From a bacterium (lineage in GTDB: Bacteria; Patescibacteriota; Minisyncoccia; Phycocordibacterales; CAIZIN01), in assembly GCA_031409775.1 (NCBI GenBank), contig JANNXY010000042.1, forward strand, positions 165 to 64,164: a stretch of DNA of 64,000 nucleotides, written 5' to 3'. The position numbers and the translations under genes are program-made. Shown piece after piece: positions 3,179 through 40,869 of this stretch (position 1 is the first letter of the stretch; every line of letters begins with the position of its first letter). Below the pieces are notes generated by a model, which was not told where the DNA came from, made no database searches, and was given only the letters and a program-made list of their open reading frames with translations.

Positions 3179-4960
3179 TTATGACAATTTCTCTAGCCTA
3201 GCTATATCTTCCTCGATAGATTTGAGCCCCGCTTCAAAGAATTCCGGCTTAGAGGTATCGACGCCGATGTCCTTAAATATCTGATACGGTGATTTGGAAC
3301 CACCAGCAGACAAGAACTCTTTTATCTTGTTTATGAAACCCTTGTCTTCTTTGTACTTGGCATAGAGCGCTTTGGAAATTATCTGACCATAAGCGTAGGA
3401 GTAGACGTAGAAGAAATATCTAAAGTGAGAAACGTAGACAAATGAATATCCCTCGTCTGGCTTCACATCCATCGCTTTACCTATGTAGCTCTCGATATGC
3501 TTCTTGTATAAGTCGGCGTACTCCCTGCTCGAAAGTGCCCCTTTTTGCCTCACCAAGTTGTGCATTTCGAGCTCGAAGTTAAAGAAAGCGATCTGGCGGA
3601 ATATGGTAGACATGTCATCCTGGATACGATCGAACAGGGCTATTTTCTTTTCTTTCTCTGACATCATTTCAAACACTTTCTCGAATGCAATGTTCTCGAA
3701 GAATGTTGAAGCAACTTCGGCAACAGAAATAGTATAGTTTTCATACAACACCGGCTGGCTACGAGAAAGTTCCGAATGTATCGCATGTCCCATCTCGTGA
3801 GCTAGAGTAGTATATGAGTTCAAGTTGTCCGTGTGATTGAGGAGAATTATGGTTGGTATATCGTGGCCGTTATTGCAAAATGCACCAGTTCTCTTGCCTT
3901 TCATAGGATAAACATCTATCCTCCCTGACTCTGCCATACTGAGTAGTATATTGCTGAATTTCACATCAGCACTAGCAAATGATTCTGCCGCCAAATCTAC
4001 CGCTTTGTTGAAAGGGATTTTCATCTTGGTCTTGCCTATACTTATCGAAGTGTCTGCTATGCGGAGCTTCTTTAGCTTGAGTAGCTTGGCTTTGAGTTTG
4101 TAGAACTTATGTGAAATGTAGAATTTATCAGTTATAGTATTGACCAAAGTCTCTATAGAATTCAAATCATTCTGGTAACCCACAACAGTTAGCTCATATG
4201 GTTTAGAGACATTGCGTAGATCATCGTCAATTTTCTTGTTGGTAACTACAGCGTTGAGCTCGGCTTCTGCAATAAATGAAATACTTTTTAGCTTCTGTGA
4301 TATCAGGTCACGAAGCTTGTAGCGGTCGGATTTGTTTAGCTCATTTATCATTCCTATCGCTTTACCCATCGGTAGCTTCTTGCCTTTCCATACTATCTGC
4401 TGCTGGTCCTGGAGCTTGCCTGAAACATCTGTCCACATGTTGTAGGCAGGCTGACGCTTGAGGTTGATGATCTTTTCTTCGGCTTCAGTTAAATTGTATT
4501 TGGCAGTAATAAAAATCCTTTCCAAGAAATATTTGTAACCTCCAAGAGTTTTATTAGTTAGAAATTCTTTTTGTTTATCTTTATCAATCTTACCAAGAGC
4601 AATTTCAAAGAAAATAATCTGGTTCGCAGCCATAGTTAGTCTGTTCTCCATCTTGTTTAACATCGCACGCATTGTGTCATTGTTACTATCCTTTTCTAAA
4701 AGCATCGACAGATACCAACCCGGCTTCCAAGTGCCTGCGGTTCTGTTTAGATTTTCCCAGTCTTCGAGTGCTTTGGCCAAACCTTCAGAAGTTTCTAGAT
4801 AATCAGATTTGTCTTTGTATTTCTTGGCAAACTTCCAGTAAACTTTCTCAATCATTTTGCAATCTTCTTCGATCCGAGGATCACTGATAGATTTGTAAAT
4901 ATCACTAAAATCCCATTCGGTCTTATACTTTGTATTTTTGCTGGTTTTTAAGTTTTTCAT
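3179..4960 (-). CDS. pepF: oligoendopeptidase F (peptidase M3B)
   Basis: 593 aa; HEMGH zinc-binding HExxH motif and overall PepF-like sequence (LAHEMGHAIHSE). Confidence 0.85.
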   Translation of the reverse strand: MKNLKTSKNTKYKTEWDFSDIYKSISDPRIEEDCKMIEKVYWKFAKKYKDKSDYLETSEGLAKALEDWENLNRTAGTWKPGWYLSMLLEKDSNNDTMRAMLNKMENRLTMAANQIIFFEIALGKIDKDKQKEFLTNKTLGGYKYFLERIFITAKYNLTEAEEKIINLKRQPAYNMWTDVSGKLQDQQQIVWKGKKLPMGKAIGMINELNKSDRYKLRDLISQKLKSISFIAEAELNAVVTNKKIDDDLRNVSKPYELTVVGYQNDLNSIETLVNTITDKFYISHKFYKLKAKLLKLKKLRIADTSISIGKTKMKIPFNKAVDLAAESFASADVKFSNILLSMAESGRIDVYPMKGKRTGAFCNNGHDIPTIILLNHTDNLNSYTTLAHEMGHAIHSELSRSQPVLYENYTISVAEVASTFFENIAFEKVFEMMSEKEKKIALFDRIQDDMSTIFRQIAFFNFELEMHNLVRQKGALSSREYADLYKKHIESYIGKAMDVKPDEGYSFVYVSHFRYFFYVYSYAYGQIISKALYAKYKEDKGFINKIKEFLSAGGSKSPYQIFKDIGVDTSKPEFFEAGLKSIEEDIARLEKLS

Positions 4961-5780: not shown

Positions 5781-5840
5781 TTAATGCTTGATTATCTTTC
5801 CACTTGGATGTGGACTAGAATTAGCACCTAACTCAATAGG

Positions 5841-6284
5841 TTGCTCACAGGTCGTTGGGCTAGTTCCCTCGCTGTAGTCTGGATATCGTATGAGGCTTTC
5901 AATGCTTTGCTTATTATACCACACTATGATAATGTGCAAGCAGAAAAACATCGACTTATGCACCATAATACATTATTCCACTTTGGTGAAGCTGCAATTT
6001 CACATGCAGAATTATGTGCTGAAACACTTCTCAATGCCGATCCAGATAAAATGCTTCACAGTTTGGATAAGGATGGTTTCTACTACATGCTCTATGGAGA
6101 TGAACTTAAGTATTTGATAATCTTTAGCAGATTCTTTGATCCTGAAGCGAATTTTGTTACGCTGCGCGGTTGCCCTACTGGTCCTGGGAGACAAGCTGGT
6201 AGGGACGAGATAATGAGACATATTGGGTCAGCAAAGAGATTTGCTACGGAGGTACTGGAAAGATGCAAAGAGCTCAGAGCCTAG
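5841..6284 (+). CDS. hypothetical protein (uncertain ORF)
   Basis: 147 aa ORF with no recognisable motifs. It overlaps conflicting ORFs on both strands, so the coding status is unresolved. Confidence 0.25.
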   Translation: MLTGRWASSLAVVWISYEAFNALLIIPHYDNVQAEKHRLMHHNTLFHFGEAAISHAELCAETLLNADPDKMLHSLDKDGFYYMLYGDELKYLIIFSRFFDPEANFVTLRGCPTGPGRQAGRDEIMRHIGSAKRFATEVLERCKELRA

Positions 6285-35932: not shown

Positions 35933-37063
35933 CTATTTATTAAACATTGCAACATATTGGTACAATTCAAAAGATCGGTTTCTTGAAAAACCCGTTTTTT
36001 CTTTTAAGATCCCTTTTTCAACAAATTCCTCAATAAGTCGATTTGCTGTTATAAACACAACACCTAGTTCATGCGCTATCTGATTCACACCCATTATTGG
36101 CTGTGAAAAAAGTCTAAGTAATAATTTTTGTCCCAGTGGAGCACGCCTGCCCATTGTCATTATTTTTTTCTCATATTCTTGTCGTAGAGTTACTATATTT
36201 TCCAAAGTCTCTTTGCCTTTCGTTGCAGTACTGATAACCCCAGATAGAAAAAACTTTATCCATTGCTCTACACTATTTGATGAACGTACTAGAGTCAATG
36301 AGTCATAATATGAACCCTTATTTTTTGCAAAAAAGTCAGAGAGATAAAGCGTTGGACGTTGTAATACCCCACCTTCTACTAATTGAAGTGTGACCAACAA
36401 TCGTCCAATTCTCCCGTTACCATCCAAGAAAGGATGGATGGTTTCAAACTGATAGTGACTTATAGCCATTTTTAATAATATTGGTATTTCTAGTTGCTTG
36501 TTATGCCAAAATTTTTGCAGATCGGAAAGCAATTCTTCCACTTCAGTGGGGTGCGGTGGGATAAAGAAGGCATCTTTCAGACTCGATCCTCCAATCCAAT
36601 TTTGACTTTTTCTAATTTCGCCAGGGGTTCTGTGTTCACCGCGAACACCGGATAAAAGAATTTTGTGAGCAGATTTCAACAATCTCATAGACAAAGGTAG
36701 ATTCTCGAGTTCTTTTATCGAATGGTTTATTGCTTGGATATAGTTTTGCACCTCTCTCCAGTCATCTCTACGCTCTGGTTCAATATCTTCTTTCGGGGAG
36801 AGTATTTCATCTATCCCAGTCTTAGTTCCTTCAATACGACTAGATGTTATTGCCTCTTTGGCAATATGCATCTTGATAAAATAGTCCACATCAGGAACGA
36901 GTGTTGAGTAAGCATTGAGTTCACCTAAAAGCCTCATTGCCTCGGAAAGCAAAATATCAATCTTTTTATCTTCCCATTCAAATGGTTTATTAATCAGAAA
37001 AGGACTAAAGCACTTATATTCCAACTGCTGCTTATATATACCCGCTTTAAATGTTTGCTTCAT
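35933..37063 (-). CDS. Fic/DOC family protein (putative AMPylator) with N-terminal inhibitory motif and C-terminal winged helix
   Basis: Fic active-site motif [13 protein letters not shown]-terminal SxxxEG ([11 protein letters not shown]) inhibitory-helix motif, i.e. a class II Fic layout. Confidence 0.85.
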
Positions 37064-38218: not shown

Positions 38219-38770
38219 TTAGTTCATTATTTCTTTCTCTTTCTTGTCGAAGTGCGTATCGAACGTAGAATTCGATTCTGTAACGAGCTTGTCTACTTCT
38301 GTCTTGTGTCTCATCGCTTCGTCTTCACTAATTTCGCTATCTTTTTTCTTGGTATCTATCAATGCGTTAATTTTATTGCGTTCCTGACGTAACTCGACAC
38401 GGGCTTCTTCGAGCTTTTCTTTGACTATCTTTACGAGTGCACTCCTGCGGTCACCTGTGAGCTCTGGGAAGAATAGTCGTAGACCTTTCTCATCTATTGC
38501 AGTCGATAATCCCAAGTTGGATACAGATATGGCCTTTTCGATAGATTTCACCAGTGTCATGTCCCATGGTGTTATACGGATGGTTTTGGGATCTTCGACT
38601 GACAGGTTGGCTACCTGGTTAATAGGCATCATGGATCCGTATGCTTCGACAGAAATATTGTCGAGTATCGCGCTTGTAGCACGACCTGTTCTGATACCAG
38701 AAAGCTCTTTGGAGAGCCAGTCAGCTATCTCTGCGATACGCTTTTTAAAAGATGAAAATTCGTTTATCAT
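38219..38770 (-). CDS. frr: ribosome recycling factor
   Basis: 183 aa; canonical RRF sequence. Confidence 0.95.
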   Translation of the reverse strand: MINEFSSFKKRIAEIADWLSKELSGIRTGRATSAILDNISVEAYGSMMPINQVANLSVEDPKTIRITPWDMTLVKSIEKAISVSNLGLSTAIDEKGLRLFFPELTGDRRSALVKIVKEKLEEARVELRQERNKINALIDTKKKDSEISEDEAMRHKTEVDKLVTESNSTFDTHFDKKEKEIMN

Positions 38771-38793: not shown

Positions 38794-39813
38794 CTAAAAA
38801 GCCAGTGCCGCTGCGGACTCAAGTATCTGCTTTACCGATGAGCTCTGGTCGAGCAGGTACGATCGCATCTCTAGAATCATCCTCTGGTTCCTAATAGGTT
38901 TGTTGGTGTTACGCATAGCTGTGATTATCTGGTCCAATAAATCAACTGCACGGTCCTTGCCAAATTTCTCTGATTTGATTCCTTCGACTATTTTACTACT
39001 TTCTAGCAATAGCTCTTTTACGCTCAGTTTTATATCATTTATTTTATTACTTACTTTCGAATCAAATTTGGATTCCAGTCGCGATCTAAGAGTTGGTAGA
39101 ATACGTTCAGGGAATTGAGTAACGAAGAAAAAAACAGTATCTCGCGGCGGTTCCTCTACTACTTTGAGCAATGTGTTCTGTGCTTCTGCGTTCATGGTTA
39201 TAAACTCGAGCATCACTATCCTTTTCTTGTTTCCAAATGTGTGTCTAGATAAAGCATCTTTGACTTCGCGAGCTGTATCTATCTTGAAGTTGGTTTCTCT
39301 GTATACAAGCAACTCTAAATTACCTTTATCCTCTTTCGATAAAATCCCTTCTGCTATTTCTTTGGTCAAGAGGTATGCGTGATGCATCGGGGGTATTTTA
39401 GCATTTCCCCTCCTTATCCTAGGAGGGGTGGTCGTAGACCGGGGAGGTAGATTCTCTTGAATTTTACTTAAAACTCCACTTAGATTATTTCTTACTTCAC
39501 TATTCCAAAATCTTATAACGCTCAAATTTAATTCTTTGAAAAATTCTGTTCTTACTTTATCATATTCTTGATCTTCACTATGCGAATTCCCGTCGACTTC
39601 AATAATCAAACTCTTTTCACTGCAATAGAAATCAACTACATATCTGCCTATCCCCGTCTGCCTTCTGAATTTATAACCCAAGCCATTTCCTTTCAATTTT
39701 GACCAAAGTAAAACTTCCTCTTTGCTCATATTATGTCGGAGAAATCTTCTTTTTTCCTTTGAATTCGCTAGATTAAATATTCTATCAGTATTCATAGAAG
39801 AATTATACACCAC
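38794..39813 (-). CDS. holB: in-frame fusion ORF: DUF559 (Vsr-like endonuclease fold) domain + DNA polymerase III delta' (HolB)-like C-terminal part
   Basis: aa ~7-120 match DUF559 (KFRRQTGIGRYVVDFYCSEKSLIIEVDGNSHS...VIRFWNSEV). aa 143-339 match clamp-loader delta' (MHHAYLL..., LLKVVEEPP, LRSRL). The listed GTG start lies inside the inverted repeat, so the likely DUF559 start is the ATG at 39795 and the likely native holB start is the ATG at 39387. Confidence 0.65.
   Translation of the reverse strand: MVYNSSMNTDRIFNLANSKEKRRFLRHNMSKEEVLLWSKLKGNGLGYKFRRQTGIGRYVVDFYCSEKSLIIEVDGNSHSEDQEYDKVRTEFFKELNLSVIRFWNSEVRNNLSGVLSKIQENLPPRSTTTPPRIRRGNAKIPPMHHAYLLTKEIAEGILSKEDKGNLELLVYRETNFKIDTAREVKDALSRHTFGNKKRIVMLEFITMNAEAQNTLLKVVEEPPRDTVFFFVTQFPERILPTLRSRLESKFDSKVSNKINDIKLSVKELLLESSKIVEGIKSEKFGKDRAVDLLDQIITAMRNTNKPIRNQRMILEMRSYLLDQSSSVKQILESAAALAF
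39403..39447. repeat. right inverted repeat of DUF559 cassette (also encodes PPRSTTTPPRIRRGNAK linker)
   Basis: See the mobile_element entry; contains palindrome CCCCTCC-N8-GGAGGGG. Confidence 0.6.
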
Positions 39814-39854
39814 CCCGGCCTCCGGCCACCCCTCCTAGGATAAGGAGGGGAAAT
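39811..39854. repeat. left inverted repeat of DUF559 cassette (supplies TATAAT 7 nt upstream of the DUF559 ATG)
   Basis: Reverse complement matches 39403-39447; contains palindrome CCCCTCC-N8-GGAGGGG. Confidence 0.6.
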
Positions 39855-39855
39855 A

Positions 39856-40869
39856 CTACCTCTTTGACAATATGGTTTTCTTGTATGCATCTAGGTGTTC
39901 GAGTGCAGTACCTGTGCCTTTGGCCACACAATGCATCGGGTCCTCGGCAAGCGTGCATTTAACACCCGTACGTCGATAGACAAGTTCTGGGAAGTTGCGT
40001 AGTAGTGATGAGCCACCTGTCATAATTATACCCTGGTCGATAATATCTGATGCGAGCTCTGGTGGGGTTTCCTGTAATACATCCTTTATAGCCTTGATCA
40101 TCTCGCGAAGCTCTTTGGAAATTGCTTTCACTATTTCGTTAGTCTTGATCTCTGTTGATCGTGGAAGTCCAGTGAGGAAATCACGGCCTTTGACTATCAC
40201 CACGAGCTCTTCGTCGAGGAAGACCGCCGAACCTATTTCTAGCTTTATTCGTTCGGCGGTCTTGTCCCCTATCGCTAGGTTGAAATTCTTCTTTATATAA
40301 TCAGTTATTGCTGCATCTATCTTGTTGCCTGCACATTTGACTGATGTAGATGCTACTATACCTCCGAGCGAGATCACCGCCACATCTGTAGTACCACCTC
40401 CAATATCCACTACCATGTGACCTTTGGGTTCATATATCGGTATCCCTGCGCCGATCGCAGCAAGTATGGGCTCTTTGACCACATAAGCGTTCTTGGCTCC
40501 AGCTTTGATAGTCGCCTCGATCACTGCCCTACGCTCCGTTGAAGTGATTCCTGCGGGAACAGAAACCATTACCTCTGGTTTCCAGATATTCCATTTACCC
40601 AATGATTTGTTCATATAGTATCGGAGCATTGCTTCTGTCACACGATAGTCAGCGATCACCCCGTCTTTGAGCGGTCTATAGGCTATGATGTTCTCTGGGG
40701 TTCGACCTATCATAGCCTTGGCATCGAGCCCAACAGCCAGAATCCTATTGTCCTGTTCTGATACAGCTACAACAGAAGGTTCGTTTAGAACTATGCCTTG
40801 ACCAGGGACAAAAACCAGTGTATTTGCAGTTCCTAGATCTATTCCTAATTTGGGTGAAAACCAGCTCAT
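39856..40869 (-). CDS. MreB-like actin homolog (second paralog)
   Basis: LGIDLGTANTLVF and DIGGGTTD motifs; 337 aa; separate from the mreBCD operon. Confidence 0.85.
   Translation of the reverse strand: MSWFSPKLGIDLGTANTLVFVPGQGIVLNEPSVVAVSEQDNRILAVGLDAKAMIGRTPENIIAYRPLKDGVIADYRVTEAMLRYYMNKSLGKWNIWKPEVMVSVPAGITSTERRAVIEATIKAGAKNAYVVKEPILAAIGAGIPIYEPKGHMVVDIGGGTTDVAVISLGGIVASTSVKCAGNKIDAAITDYIKKNFNLAIGDKTAERIKLEIGSAVFLDEELVVIVKGRDFLTGLPRSTEIKTNEIVKAISKELREMIKAIKDVLQETPPELASDIIDQGIIMTGGSSLLRNFPELVYRRTGVKCTLAEDPMHCVAKGTGTALEHLDAYKKTILSKR

Follow-up and report, generated by a model that had tools for sequence, protein, structure and literature searches.

A stretch of 64,000 nucleotides from a patescibacterial genome (contig JANNXY010000042.1; this whole stretch is called the window below) carries, at the junction of mreB and holB, a gene for a small DUF559 nuclease that is enclosed by two inverted repeat arms and read in frame into holB, which encodes a delta-prime-like clamp-loader subunit. 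On the minus strand, the order is mreB, a segment of 466 nt, holB (ATG at 39387) and frr (Table 1). The open reading frame (ORF) that joins the nuclease to HolB (38794-39813, minus strand) encodes 339 amino acids (aa), with DUF559 at aa 19-122 and DNA_pol3_delta2 at aa 163-246. Such a fusion of DUF559 and clamp loader upstream of frr had been proposed in an earlier note made from the letters alone, and the matches to PF04480 and DNA_pol3_delta2 bear it out. DUF559 is the only coding content between the two arms, and the 64 kb contain no other DUF559 coding sequence.

The DUF559 reading frame, whose likely start is the ATG at 39795 (where its N terminus aligns with those of free-standing homologues), has no stop codon before holB and runs through the downstream arm. 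On the gene strand, one frame of this arm is open, and the other two meet TAA or TAG in the hairpin loop. Because no stop intervenes and the arm is open in the frame that meets the holB ATG, the predicted product consists of DUF559, a Pro/Arg/Gly linker and then delta-prime. The linker is the translated downstream arm (PPRSTTTPPRIRRGNAK), and the junction peptide of the predicted fusion reads ...IRRGNAKIPPMHHAYLL. The earlier note had recognized the linker as a translated repeat but had assigned it to the right repeat, whereas the translated arm is the left one in plus-strand coordinates. The upstream arm holds two stop codons in the DUF559 frame, and mreB is therefore not fused; the TAG stop of mreB (39858-39856) abuts or overlaps the outer end of this arm.

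Table 1 Features at the mreB-holB junction of the window
Feature	Position	Strand	Remark
mreB	39856-40869	-	upstream neighbour; ORF list
Upstream arm of inverted repeat	39809-39858	-	repeat search, motif finder, DNA fold
TATAAT hexamer	39802-39807	-	just inside upstream arm
DUF559 nuclease ORF, YcjD-type Vsr-fold PD-(D/E)XK	39448-39795	-	own ATG 39795-39793, no stop
Pfam DUF559 domain	39759-39448	-	PF04480
Downstream arm of inverted repeat	39399-39448	+ (antisense to gene)	putative triplex motif on + strand
Native mreB-holB spacer remnant AAATACCCCCG	39388-39398	-	in frame, codes IPP
holB, short delta-prime-like clamp-loader subunit, 197 aa	38794-39387	-	own ATG intact
frr	38219-38770		downstream of holB

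Insertion of a nuclease cassette between mreB and holB

In three relatives with the same synteny (L001, L002 and L211), mreB and holB are separated by 10, 2 and 4 nt, respectively, and no cassette is present. These relatives share the order def, a conserved 630-aa gene, mreB and holB, followed in two of them by frr, and their HolB proteins are 202-206 aa long (202-208 aa for the orthologues in the same synteny). Since the syntenic relatives have 2-10 nt between mreB and holB, this comparison shows the segment of ~460 bp at 39399-39858 to be, as judged from the sequences, an insertion in the 2-10-nt spacer. The holB start (ATG at 39387-39385, MHHAYLL), which the earlier note had described as intact, is shared with the orthologues P0002 and P0003, the two sequences read, both of which begin with MHHAYL. 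Among the HolB homologues returned, none other than the window ORF carried DUF559; the fusion protein forms a singleton cluster and was seen both on the NCBI contig and in an independent Logan assembly.

The mreB-holB junction is an insertion hot spot in this lineage. L209 and L210 carry at this point a 106-nt insert (L209 3063-3168) that consists of triplex-type repeats only, with no DUF559 gene. An unrelated insert of 545 nt with no called gene lies there in L207 (3015-3559), and L212 (3038-3742) has a 234-aa ORF with no Pfam hit. The window and L209 reconstruct to an identical spacer, GAGG-TA/AAATA (reconstructed empty site GAGGTAAAATA), and a duplication of the target TA is compatible with both.

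The nuclease part of the fusion matches DUF559 (PF04480) with an E-value of 8.8e-32 and 109.7 bits against a cut-off of 20.6, covering profile positions 4-108 of 109, and DUF559 and MTES_1575 are its only Pfam matches. It also matches PDB 3HRL from N. gonorrhoeae (E 1e-21) and, below the curated cut-off of that model, the NCBIfam model PRK09767/YcjD (E 2.4e-19). On the catalytic residues, which the earlier note had recommended for checking, an alignment of 16 sequences has 15 invariant columns, and the window protein conforms to every one of them, including R8, E15, W19, Q34, D43, C46, E54, D56, G57, H60, D67, R70, R83 and N86, and the catalytic-type residues of the subfamily are present (the D in vDFyC, E-x-D-G, H, D..R and RF.N). 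Judged by these residues and by the DNA damage that a DUF559 protein of Caulobacter brings about in vivo (PMC12907096), the window nuclease is probably active. The Vsr model PF03852 gave no match at E-values up to 0.1, linkage to a 5mC methyltransferase was not seen either, the neighbouring genes being mreB and holB, and a PADLOC search returned no meaningful defence-system match (E 0.004, 14.8 bits). Like other members of the YcjD/DUF559 family, which has no established function, the window protein is a small single-domain Vsr-fold PD-(D/E)XK nuclease with the invariant residues kept; it differs from them in having no stop codon and in being fused to delta-prime. The family is very large, with 22,423 cluster representatives at E-values up to 1e-3 (~22,000 clusters at 50% identity), and rare in phages (3/50,697 records) and plasmids (41/72,556), so that carriage by phages or plasmids was rejected as essentially absent. 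Tandem DUF559 proteins with two or three domains were also encountered (P0004, P0175, P0203 and P0260; for example, 297 aa with two domains).

A TATAAT hexamer precedes the DUF559 ATG. The earlier note had derived it from the left repeat at a distance of 7 nt; the hexamer is indeed present, but it adjoins the right arm on its inner side, beyond the repeated part, and stands 6 nt before the ATG (39807-39802). It could drive a leaderless transcript, an idea that finds no support: a promoter scan calls no promoter at this site, because there is no -35 box, and TATAAT-like boxes precede the start codon in 9 of the 80 DUF559 loci described below, compared with ~8 expected at random ATGs. The hexamer thus does not hold up as a feature of the element.

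As for the flanking genes, MreB homologues with 84-91% identity are found in Patescibacteria (Paceibacteria/Parcubacteria) and place the organism there. HolB matches PF13177 (E 1e-17, 65 bits against a cut-off of 27), with profile positions 68-152 alone being covered, and scores 71.7 bits with TIGR00678, under its cut-off of 180.6. The HolB proteins of this lineage (window, P0002 and P0003) are ~200 aa long, and in them MHHAYL is followed almost directly by profile position 68. The window HolB and all close orthologues thus lack the P-loop region that belongs to the AAA+ module.

Architecture of the repeat arms

The 29-nt core of the arms, ATTTCCCCTCCTTATCCTAGGAGGGGTGG, occurs exactly twice in the 64 kb, at 39403-39431 (plus strand) and 39826-39854 (minus strand), and shuffled sequences are expected to contain none. 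The extended arms are 50 nt long, complementary at 45/50 positions (90%) and 360 nt apart. The inverted repeat around the DUF559 segment that the earlier note had reported is thereby borne out, except that its 16-nt extension matches at 12/16 positions and not 11/16. The palindrome CCCCTCC-N8-GGAGGGG, likewise reported there for each arm, was found again, and the two copies are the window's only G+C-rich 7-bp hairpins of that kind. Two elements of each arm had been overlooked, namely a mirror G-run (GGGGAGG / GGGGTGG) and a 4-bp mini-hairpin between the runs.

Read inward on the sense strand, the upstream arm is composed of TAGTATTT / CCCCTCC / TTATCCTA / GGAGGGG / T / GGCC-GGA-GGCC / GGGGTGG, and the downstream arm, on the plus strand, of CCCCTCC / TTATCCTA / GGAGGGG / T / GGTC-GTA-GACC / GGGGAGG. 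Both arms, read inward where the arm precedes the gene, have TTT before CCCCTCC. The mini-hairpins of the two arms differ by a compensatory pair (GGCC/GGCC versus GGTC/GACC). The final G-run mirrors the first one and is neither its repeat nor its complement. The same rule is seen in related cassettes, where a CCTCCCC/GGGGAGG stem goes together with a third run of GG(A/T)GGGG; in L203, L128 and L155, the stems of the two arms differ within one element, and the third run changes along with them. Of the 784 asymmetric hairpins that the fetched loci contain, 359 have an exact mirror run behind them, compared with 129 that have an exact direct run. A direct-repeat reading of the second G-run was therefore rejected in favour of the mirror model, which fits better.

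A motif finder built on this layout (a C/T stem, the complementary stem, then the mirror stem, where A may be A or T) gives exactly two motifs in the 64 kb, at 39407-39447 and 39809-39849, both with 0 mismatches and stems of 7-8 nt. DNA folding with ViennaRNA, which models the hairpins only and not the triplex, yields 8-bp and 4-bp hairpins in each arm. The first loop has 6 nt with the 8-bp stem, and the second has 12-14 nt and folds as the 4-bp mini-hairpin. Such an inner hairpin of at least 4 bp is present in the second loop of 15 of the 21 long-loop motifs (2.3 expected), often as GNNC-GTA-GNNC. The succession of pyrimidine stem, purine stem and mirrored purine stem, in which either A or T faces an A-T pair, is the code of an intramolecular purine-motif triplex, and by its sequence each arm is an intrastrand triplex motif of class II, the purine type (BoxC/PIT/TM).

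C-GNA-G mini-hairpins are unusually stable in DNA. Since both the purine triplex and the C-GNA-G hairpin are DNA structures, the arms are suggested to act as a single-stranded DNA structure, and purine-motif triplexes are not formed by RNA (Holder et al. 2015, PMC4666352). A transcript is predicted to have both arms paired as a stem of ~50 bp around the ORF (z -6.9), which could matter for processing. Rfam contains no family for the arms or the cassette, and a terminator scan called no terminator-like site at the cassette; PIT elements are reported in the literature to have no promoter or terminator activity.

This repeat class was named BoxC, then PIT and then TM (Bergler 1992; Hoyne and Maher 2000; Holder et al. 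2015, PMC4666352). For the copies of E. coli, called TMECO, stable triplex formation by single strands is reported in vitro, the E. coli-type motif has 3610 copies in 262 proteobacterial genomes, and TMECO copies are associated with local sequence variability, but no function, associated gene class or mobile element has been found for the motif (PMC4666352). The window arms resemble the class in their stem layout, G+C richness and inverted pairs, the class being multi-copy in many genomes. They do not match the TMECO consensus, CCCTCNCCC-N3-6-GGGNGAGGG-N3-GGGNGAGGG, having the stems CCCCTCC / GGAGGGG / GGGG(A/T)GG instead, and their second loop of 12-14 nt with a mini-hairpin is longer than the 1-6 nt of the ITxF search definition (Holder 2015). 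Moreover, TMECO copies are reported as always intergenic, with no associated gene or mobile element found, whereas in the window a nuclease gene stands between the repeats, one of which is translated.

A scan with the window stem returned more than 120 loci, many of them in Competibacteraceae and Burkholderiales, and a DUF559 gene lies within 300 nt of 5/120 repeat loci among the matches listed. Most copies of triplex motifs are thus shown to be orphans. Many orphans of the form TTTCCCCTCC-TTG(G/A)(A/G)T(A/C)AA-GGAGGGGTGG lie within single genomes of Competibacteraceae, Contendobacter and Burkholderiales (L008, L012, L018, L026, L027, L047, L049, L060, L066 and others, including one Competibacteraceae metagenome-assembled genome, CAIRMO01). 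Several are located at contig ends, and orphan copies are therefore suggested to break assemblies.

DUF559 genes flanked by triplex motifs across phyla

Eighty metagenome loci were chosen by DUF559 protein similarity alone (search with six closer sequences). A triplex motif was found within 250 nt of the DUF559 gene in 64 of these loci and on both sides of it in 33. The motif density was 4.26 per kb near DUF559, compared with 0.087 farther away on the same contigs and 0.70 in far non-ORF DNA, and the motif class is ~49-fold enriched next to DUF559 genes. The median gap to the motif was 56 nt before the alignment start (equal to the start codon) and 27 nt after the alignment end, and flanking inverted repeats were far above shuffled controls in 30 of the 80 loci. 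These results show that DUF559 genes across phyla are flanked by triplex motifs. The earlier note had allowed that its repeat might be a common intergenic element unrelated to the ORF; it does belong to a common class, BoxC/PIT/TM, but at this enrichment it is not unrelated.

Individual genomes give the same picture. In L038 (Bacteroidales), the window's own stem sequence stands on both sides of a free-standing DUF559 gene, and in Deinococcus proteolyticus an inverted motif pair at DUF559 lies within an inverted repeat of ~50 nt. Picosynechococcus PCC 7002 and N. gonorrhoeae likewise have DUF559 genes with flanking motifs. L038 has a second, outer inverted repeat (CCCCAACCCCATAGCCGTCAAC; 2566-2590 and 3240-3268) beyond the triplex arms, because of which this cassette is suggested to be nested in another palindromic element. 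The gonococcal record L213 (NZ_CP119142.1; 2.17 Mb), filed as a PLSDB plasmid, is evidently a chromosome, and triplex-type repeats recur in it every ~281 nt downstream of the DUF559 gene.

In E. coli K-12, ycjD has TMECO #9 (Holder Table 1) at a distance of 168 nt and a degenerate copy across its stop codon (L206 7163-7828, corresponding to K-12 1351163-1351828); the chance of such proximity is ~0.4%, given 23 TMECO copies in 4.6 Mb. Both ycjD and TMECO #9 are present in ~62% of 5,426 complete E. coli genomes. In the remaining genomes (L216 7465-14464), the homology breaks off ~40 nt away from TMECO #9, where the eefRABC efflux island follows instead, the ycjD-negative locus thus being an island replacement and not a clean empty site. 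In the E. coli strain ETEC6, an IS1 interrupts ycjD.

Repeats and nucleases also show a slight but significant correspondence in sequence. DUF559 proteins are 49.6% identical when their flanking stems share 7-mers versus 46.0% (0/2000 permutations), for which shared ancestry is a possible reason, and the two arms of one cassette are far more alike than the arms of different cassettes. No connection of these repeats with DUF559, or with a nuclease of any kind, came up in a literature search, in which most subscription journals were not covered.

The nearest DUF559 relatives of the window protein are often parts of longer proteins, including RecO, QueA, RarA, CinA, MetRS, MetH, DegT, LigA and HsdS, and further hosts of in-frame cassettes are LeuRS, acetyl-CoA synthetase (Acs) and IspG. 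The nuclease domain in these fusions is N-terminal or internal and usually stands between Pro/Gly-rich peptides, which are translated C-runs and G-runs. Fusions were found in 8 of the 80 loci at the DNA level and in ~10 of the best 150 of the 22,423 cluster representatives. Taken together, about 1 in 10 cassettes is shown to sit in frame inside or before a housekeeping gene, with the repeats serving as Pro/Gly-rich linkers, and the window copy belongs to this stop-less kind of cassette.

The host proteins reveal how these cassettes are placed. L142 and L187 have the cassette at the identical point of LeuRS, with the catalytic core on one side of it and the editing domain on the other. Acs is split in L157, and the AMP-binding model matches two stretches around the insert. 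The L142 and L157 inserts are 56% identical over the whole alignment, flanks included, with a higher identity in the nuclease core; because cassettes in two different genes are so closely related, movement between genes, and not only homing to one site, can be argued. The N-terminal cases in RecO and in an HMGL-family protein keep the host start, as the window does, and no start codon of the host can be made out in L186, the IspG case. Neither the window ORF nor the six in-frame cases had a Pfam match to Hint or intein domains. The LeuRS of L142 (2128-5553; aa 542-657) also has a NUDIX domain inserted after the editing domain, so that this essential enzyme contains two foreign domains. Before IspG in L186 (2947-5127), TPGPSKEG... 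occurs four times, and in L192 (3-2753) PHPNPLSEGEGLNS occurs three times before DUF559; as these fusions hold tandem translated repeats, repeat arrays can be read through as protein.

Candidate origin of the cassette and rival explanations

We consider it likely that 39399-39858 represents a selfish DUF559 cassette with triplex-repeat ends, of a kind that is widespread and for the most part chromosomal. The earlier note had already favoured a selfish or mobile cassette of small size, inserted where a housekeeping gene starts and giving a translational fusion, and this idea is supported by the empty-site relatives, by the lack of any other DUF559-HolB among the homologues returned and by the nearest DUF559 relatives, which occur with similar flanks in or beside many unrelated genes. 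For its spread, the following mechanism is proposed. The arms would act as single-stranded DNA, the DUF559 nuclease would recognize or nick the folded ends or the empty target, and the cassette might then be copied by host repair or replication. Such a partnership would resemble REP/RAYT, with the orphan motifs as non-autonomous partners. With ends that code for a linker and are free of stops, a copy may be able to persist within or beside essential genes whose translation is coupled. In the window, holB could still be produced, either as the fusion or from its own start, and the fusion may have been favoured as it would keep ribosomes flowing into an essential gene formerly coupled to mreB. 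The action of the nuclease on folded repeats is inferred here. A wider form of the proposal, in which DUF559/YcjD proteins are the missing enzymes of BoxC/PIT/TM, recognizing the fold of triplex plus mini-hairpin and moving themselves together with the orphans, is offered only tentatively, and we think it more doubtful than not.

Several points weigh against the reading as a mobile cassette. The empty-site relatives are distant (HolB 45-46% identical), because of which the exact boundaries and the target duplication are uncertain. No consistent target-site duplication was found across cassettes, with none in L166, L215 and others. Neither a second copy of the cassette nor an orphan motif was found in the 64 kb, the genome-wide DNA scan for the stem not having returned the window's own contig, and the nearest DUF559 relative of the window protein is at most ~55% identical among 1.8 billion representatives; with no second copy, close relative or orphan motif, recent activity in this genome is not shown. 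Cassettes differ in whether the hairpin takes the outermost or the innermost position, and since the orientation of the motif relative to the gene varies, the arms are unlike the ends of a classical transposon. Crudely counted, TMECO places in E. coli are about as many where ycjD is present (~3.0) as where it is absent (~2.6). Most TMECO copies are reported to occupy fixed loci, and a stable triplex was not found in vivo (PMC4666352). Finally, the apparent link between DUF559 and the motifs is one of position.

In a rival reading, repeats and nuclease would be separate entities: either the repeats spread by another route and pile up around DUF559 genes, or a homing-type DUF559 inserts, as a parasite, in pre-existing repeat pairs, and the nuclease would not mobilize the repeats. 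We regard this as unlikely but as the most serious competitor. It would fit the repeat-only DNA of L209/L210, five inverted repeat pairs in E. coli with no gene between them, the low share of repeat loci with a nearby DUF559 among the matches listed, the variable orientation of the motif to the gene and the TMECO counts that do not follow ycjD. However, even across distant phyla the motifs flank the ORF on either side at narrowly set distances, the arms are alike within a cassette and less so across cassettes, DUF559 similarity follows the stem sequence, and related cassettes occur together with their flanks in different host genes, all of which argue against such a separation.

That DUF559 is an ordinary host repair gene, Vsr-like as for example Caulobacter VsrA, with the repeats and the read-through into holB being incidental, seems improbable to us. 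A PD-(D/E)XK classification does group DUF559 with Vsr and the I-Bth0305I homing endonuclease, the Caulobacter protein is functionally linked to a cytosine methyltransferase and damages DNA in vivo when this methyltransferase is missing (PMC12907096), and rarity in phages and plasmids would suit a host gene. On the other hand, the gene is absent from the site in relatives, ycjD is found in only 62% of E. coli genomes, the PF03852 Vsr model is unmatched, and a repair gene has no reason to be placed in frame in LeuRS, Acs, MetRS and LigA or to be bracketed by inverted repeats.

The suggestion in the earlier note that a domesticated nuclease is delivered with the clamp loader, where it might, for example, process fork structures, received no support and is close to refuted. 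In its favour, one ORF runs without a break through a nuclease domain and a delta-prime that are both intact, but the fusion is confined to one genome and a cluster of one member, all other HolB proteins returned are without DUF559, holB keeps its own start behind a linker that is merely the translated repeat, and fusions of the same cassette with a dozen unrelated proteins exist. The joining of DUF559 to delta-prime is a side effect of the site and manner of the cassette's insertion and does not reflect a protein designed with two domains. Least probable of all is an artefact, such as a chimeric contig joined at a repeat or a stop lost by sequencing error: although the source is a metagenome-assembled genome and repeats can misjoin, the identical 339-aa product and its neighbours are present on the NCBI contig (64.9 kb) and on a Logan contig (39.9 kb), the flanking synteny matches that of relatives, stop-less in-frame cassettes recur across many assemblies, and there is no repeat to misjoin because the motif occurs only at the cassette in the window.

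Compared with known systems, the DUF559 cassette is closest in plan to REP/RAYT, which are likewise chromosomal, with a gene between two inverted structured single-strand DNA repeats and many orphans. RAYT, however, is an HUH/Y1 enzyme and not PD-(D/E)XK, REPs are simple hairpins with a GTAG tetranucleotide and not triplexes, and RAYTs are not known to occur in frame inside other genes. Rickettsia palindromic elements (RPEs) are selfish palindromic DNA that is translated in frame in genes, but they have no ORF of their own and are limited to Rickettsia, whereas the evidence here points to a nuclease-carrying unit in many phyla. Homing endonucleases and inteins also place a nuclease gene in or beside housekeeping genes with presence/absence polymorphism, and the Vsr-like EDxHD homing family (I-Bth0305I; PMC2677866, PMC3239194) shares the Vsr-like fold, the same LeuRS site being filled in L142 and L187; empty sites are seen here in distant relatives only. 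The cassettes differ in having no intron or intein, no Hint domain or splicing motif having been found, in their Pro/Gly linker flanks, in occupying different genes and in being nearly absent from phages; structured inverted repeats are not part of homing elements but bracket the window cassette. An intein or intron reading was rejected, as there is neither a Hint domain nor an RNA family. Transposons with terminal inverted repeats (TIRs) and miniature inverted-repeat transposable elements (MITEs) are similar in their terminal inverted repeats of ~50 bp and their short gene-less derivatives, and TnsA is an example of a restriction-fold PD-(D/E)XK nuclease serving as a mobility enzyme. Here, there is no DDE, HUH, serine or tyrosine recombinase, and the repeat orientation is not fixed. 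A classical transposon was rejected, given the varying repeat orientation and the lack of a consistent target duplication.

The pairing of DUF559 with these repeats and the in-frame life of the cassettes in essential genes appear to be undescribed before. If the wider proposal, with DUF559/YcjD proteins as the enzymes of these repeats, is true, it would define a new class of structure-ended mobile element that is driven by a Vsr-fold nuclease and lives in frame in essential genes without splicing. BoxC/PIT/TM repeats have been known since the 1990s from hundreds of genomes and are associated with local instability, with no enzyme or spreading mechanism tied to them; the association with DUF559 makes their origin and spread a question that can be tested at the bench, and the DUF559 family would gain a candidate substrate. 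Unspliced in-frame nuclease cassettes, as in LeuRS, MetRS, LigA and Acs, would represent a little-noticed kind of selfish DNA that differs in principle from RPEs and inteins. For annotation, proteins of the type 'DUF559 + X', DUF559-HolB included, would have to be read as insertions and not as functional architectures. The window also illustrates the tolerance of a reduced Patescibacteria genome for such a cassette in the gap between two essential genes that are tightly coupled.

Two further features of the window were recorded. Its sole Rfam family is a SAM riboswitch (RF00162) at 5789-5888 on the minus strand, which scores 44.5 bits against a gathering threshold of 44.4. Three genes downstream of holB, after frr and an M50 protease gene, a 376-aa ORF (35933-37063, minus strand) carries a Fic-type motif and probably belongs to the Fic/DOC family.

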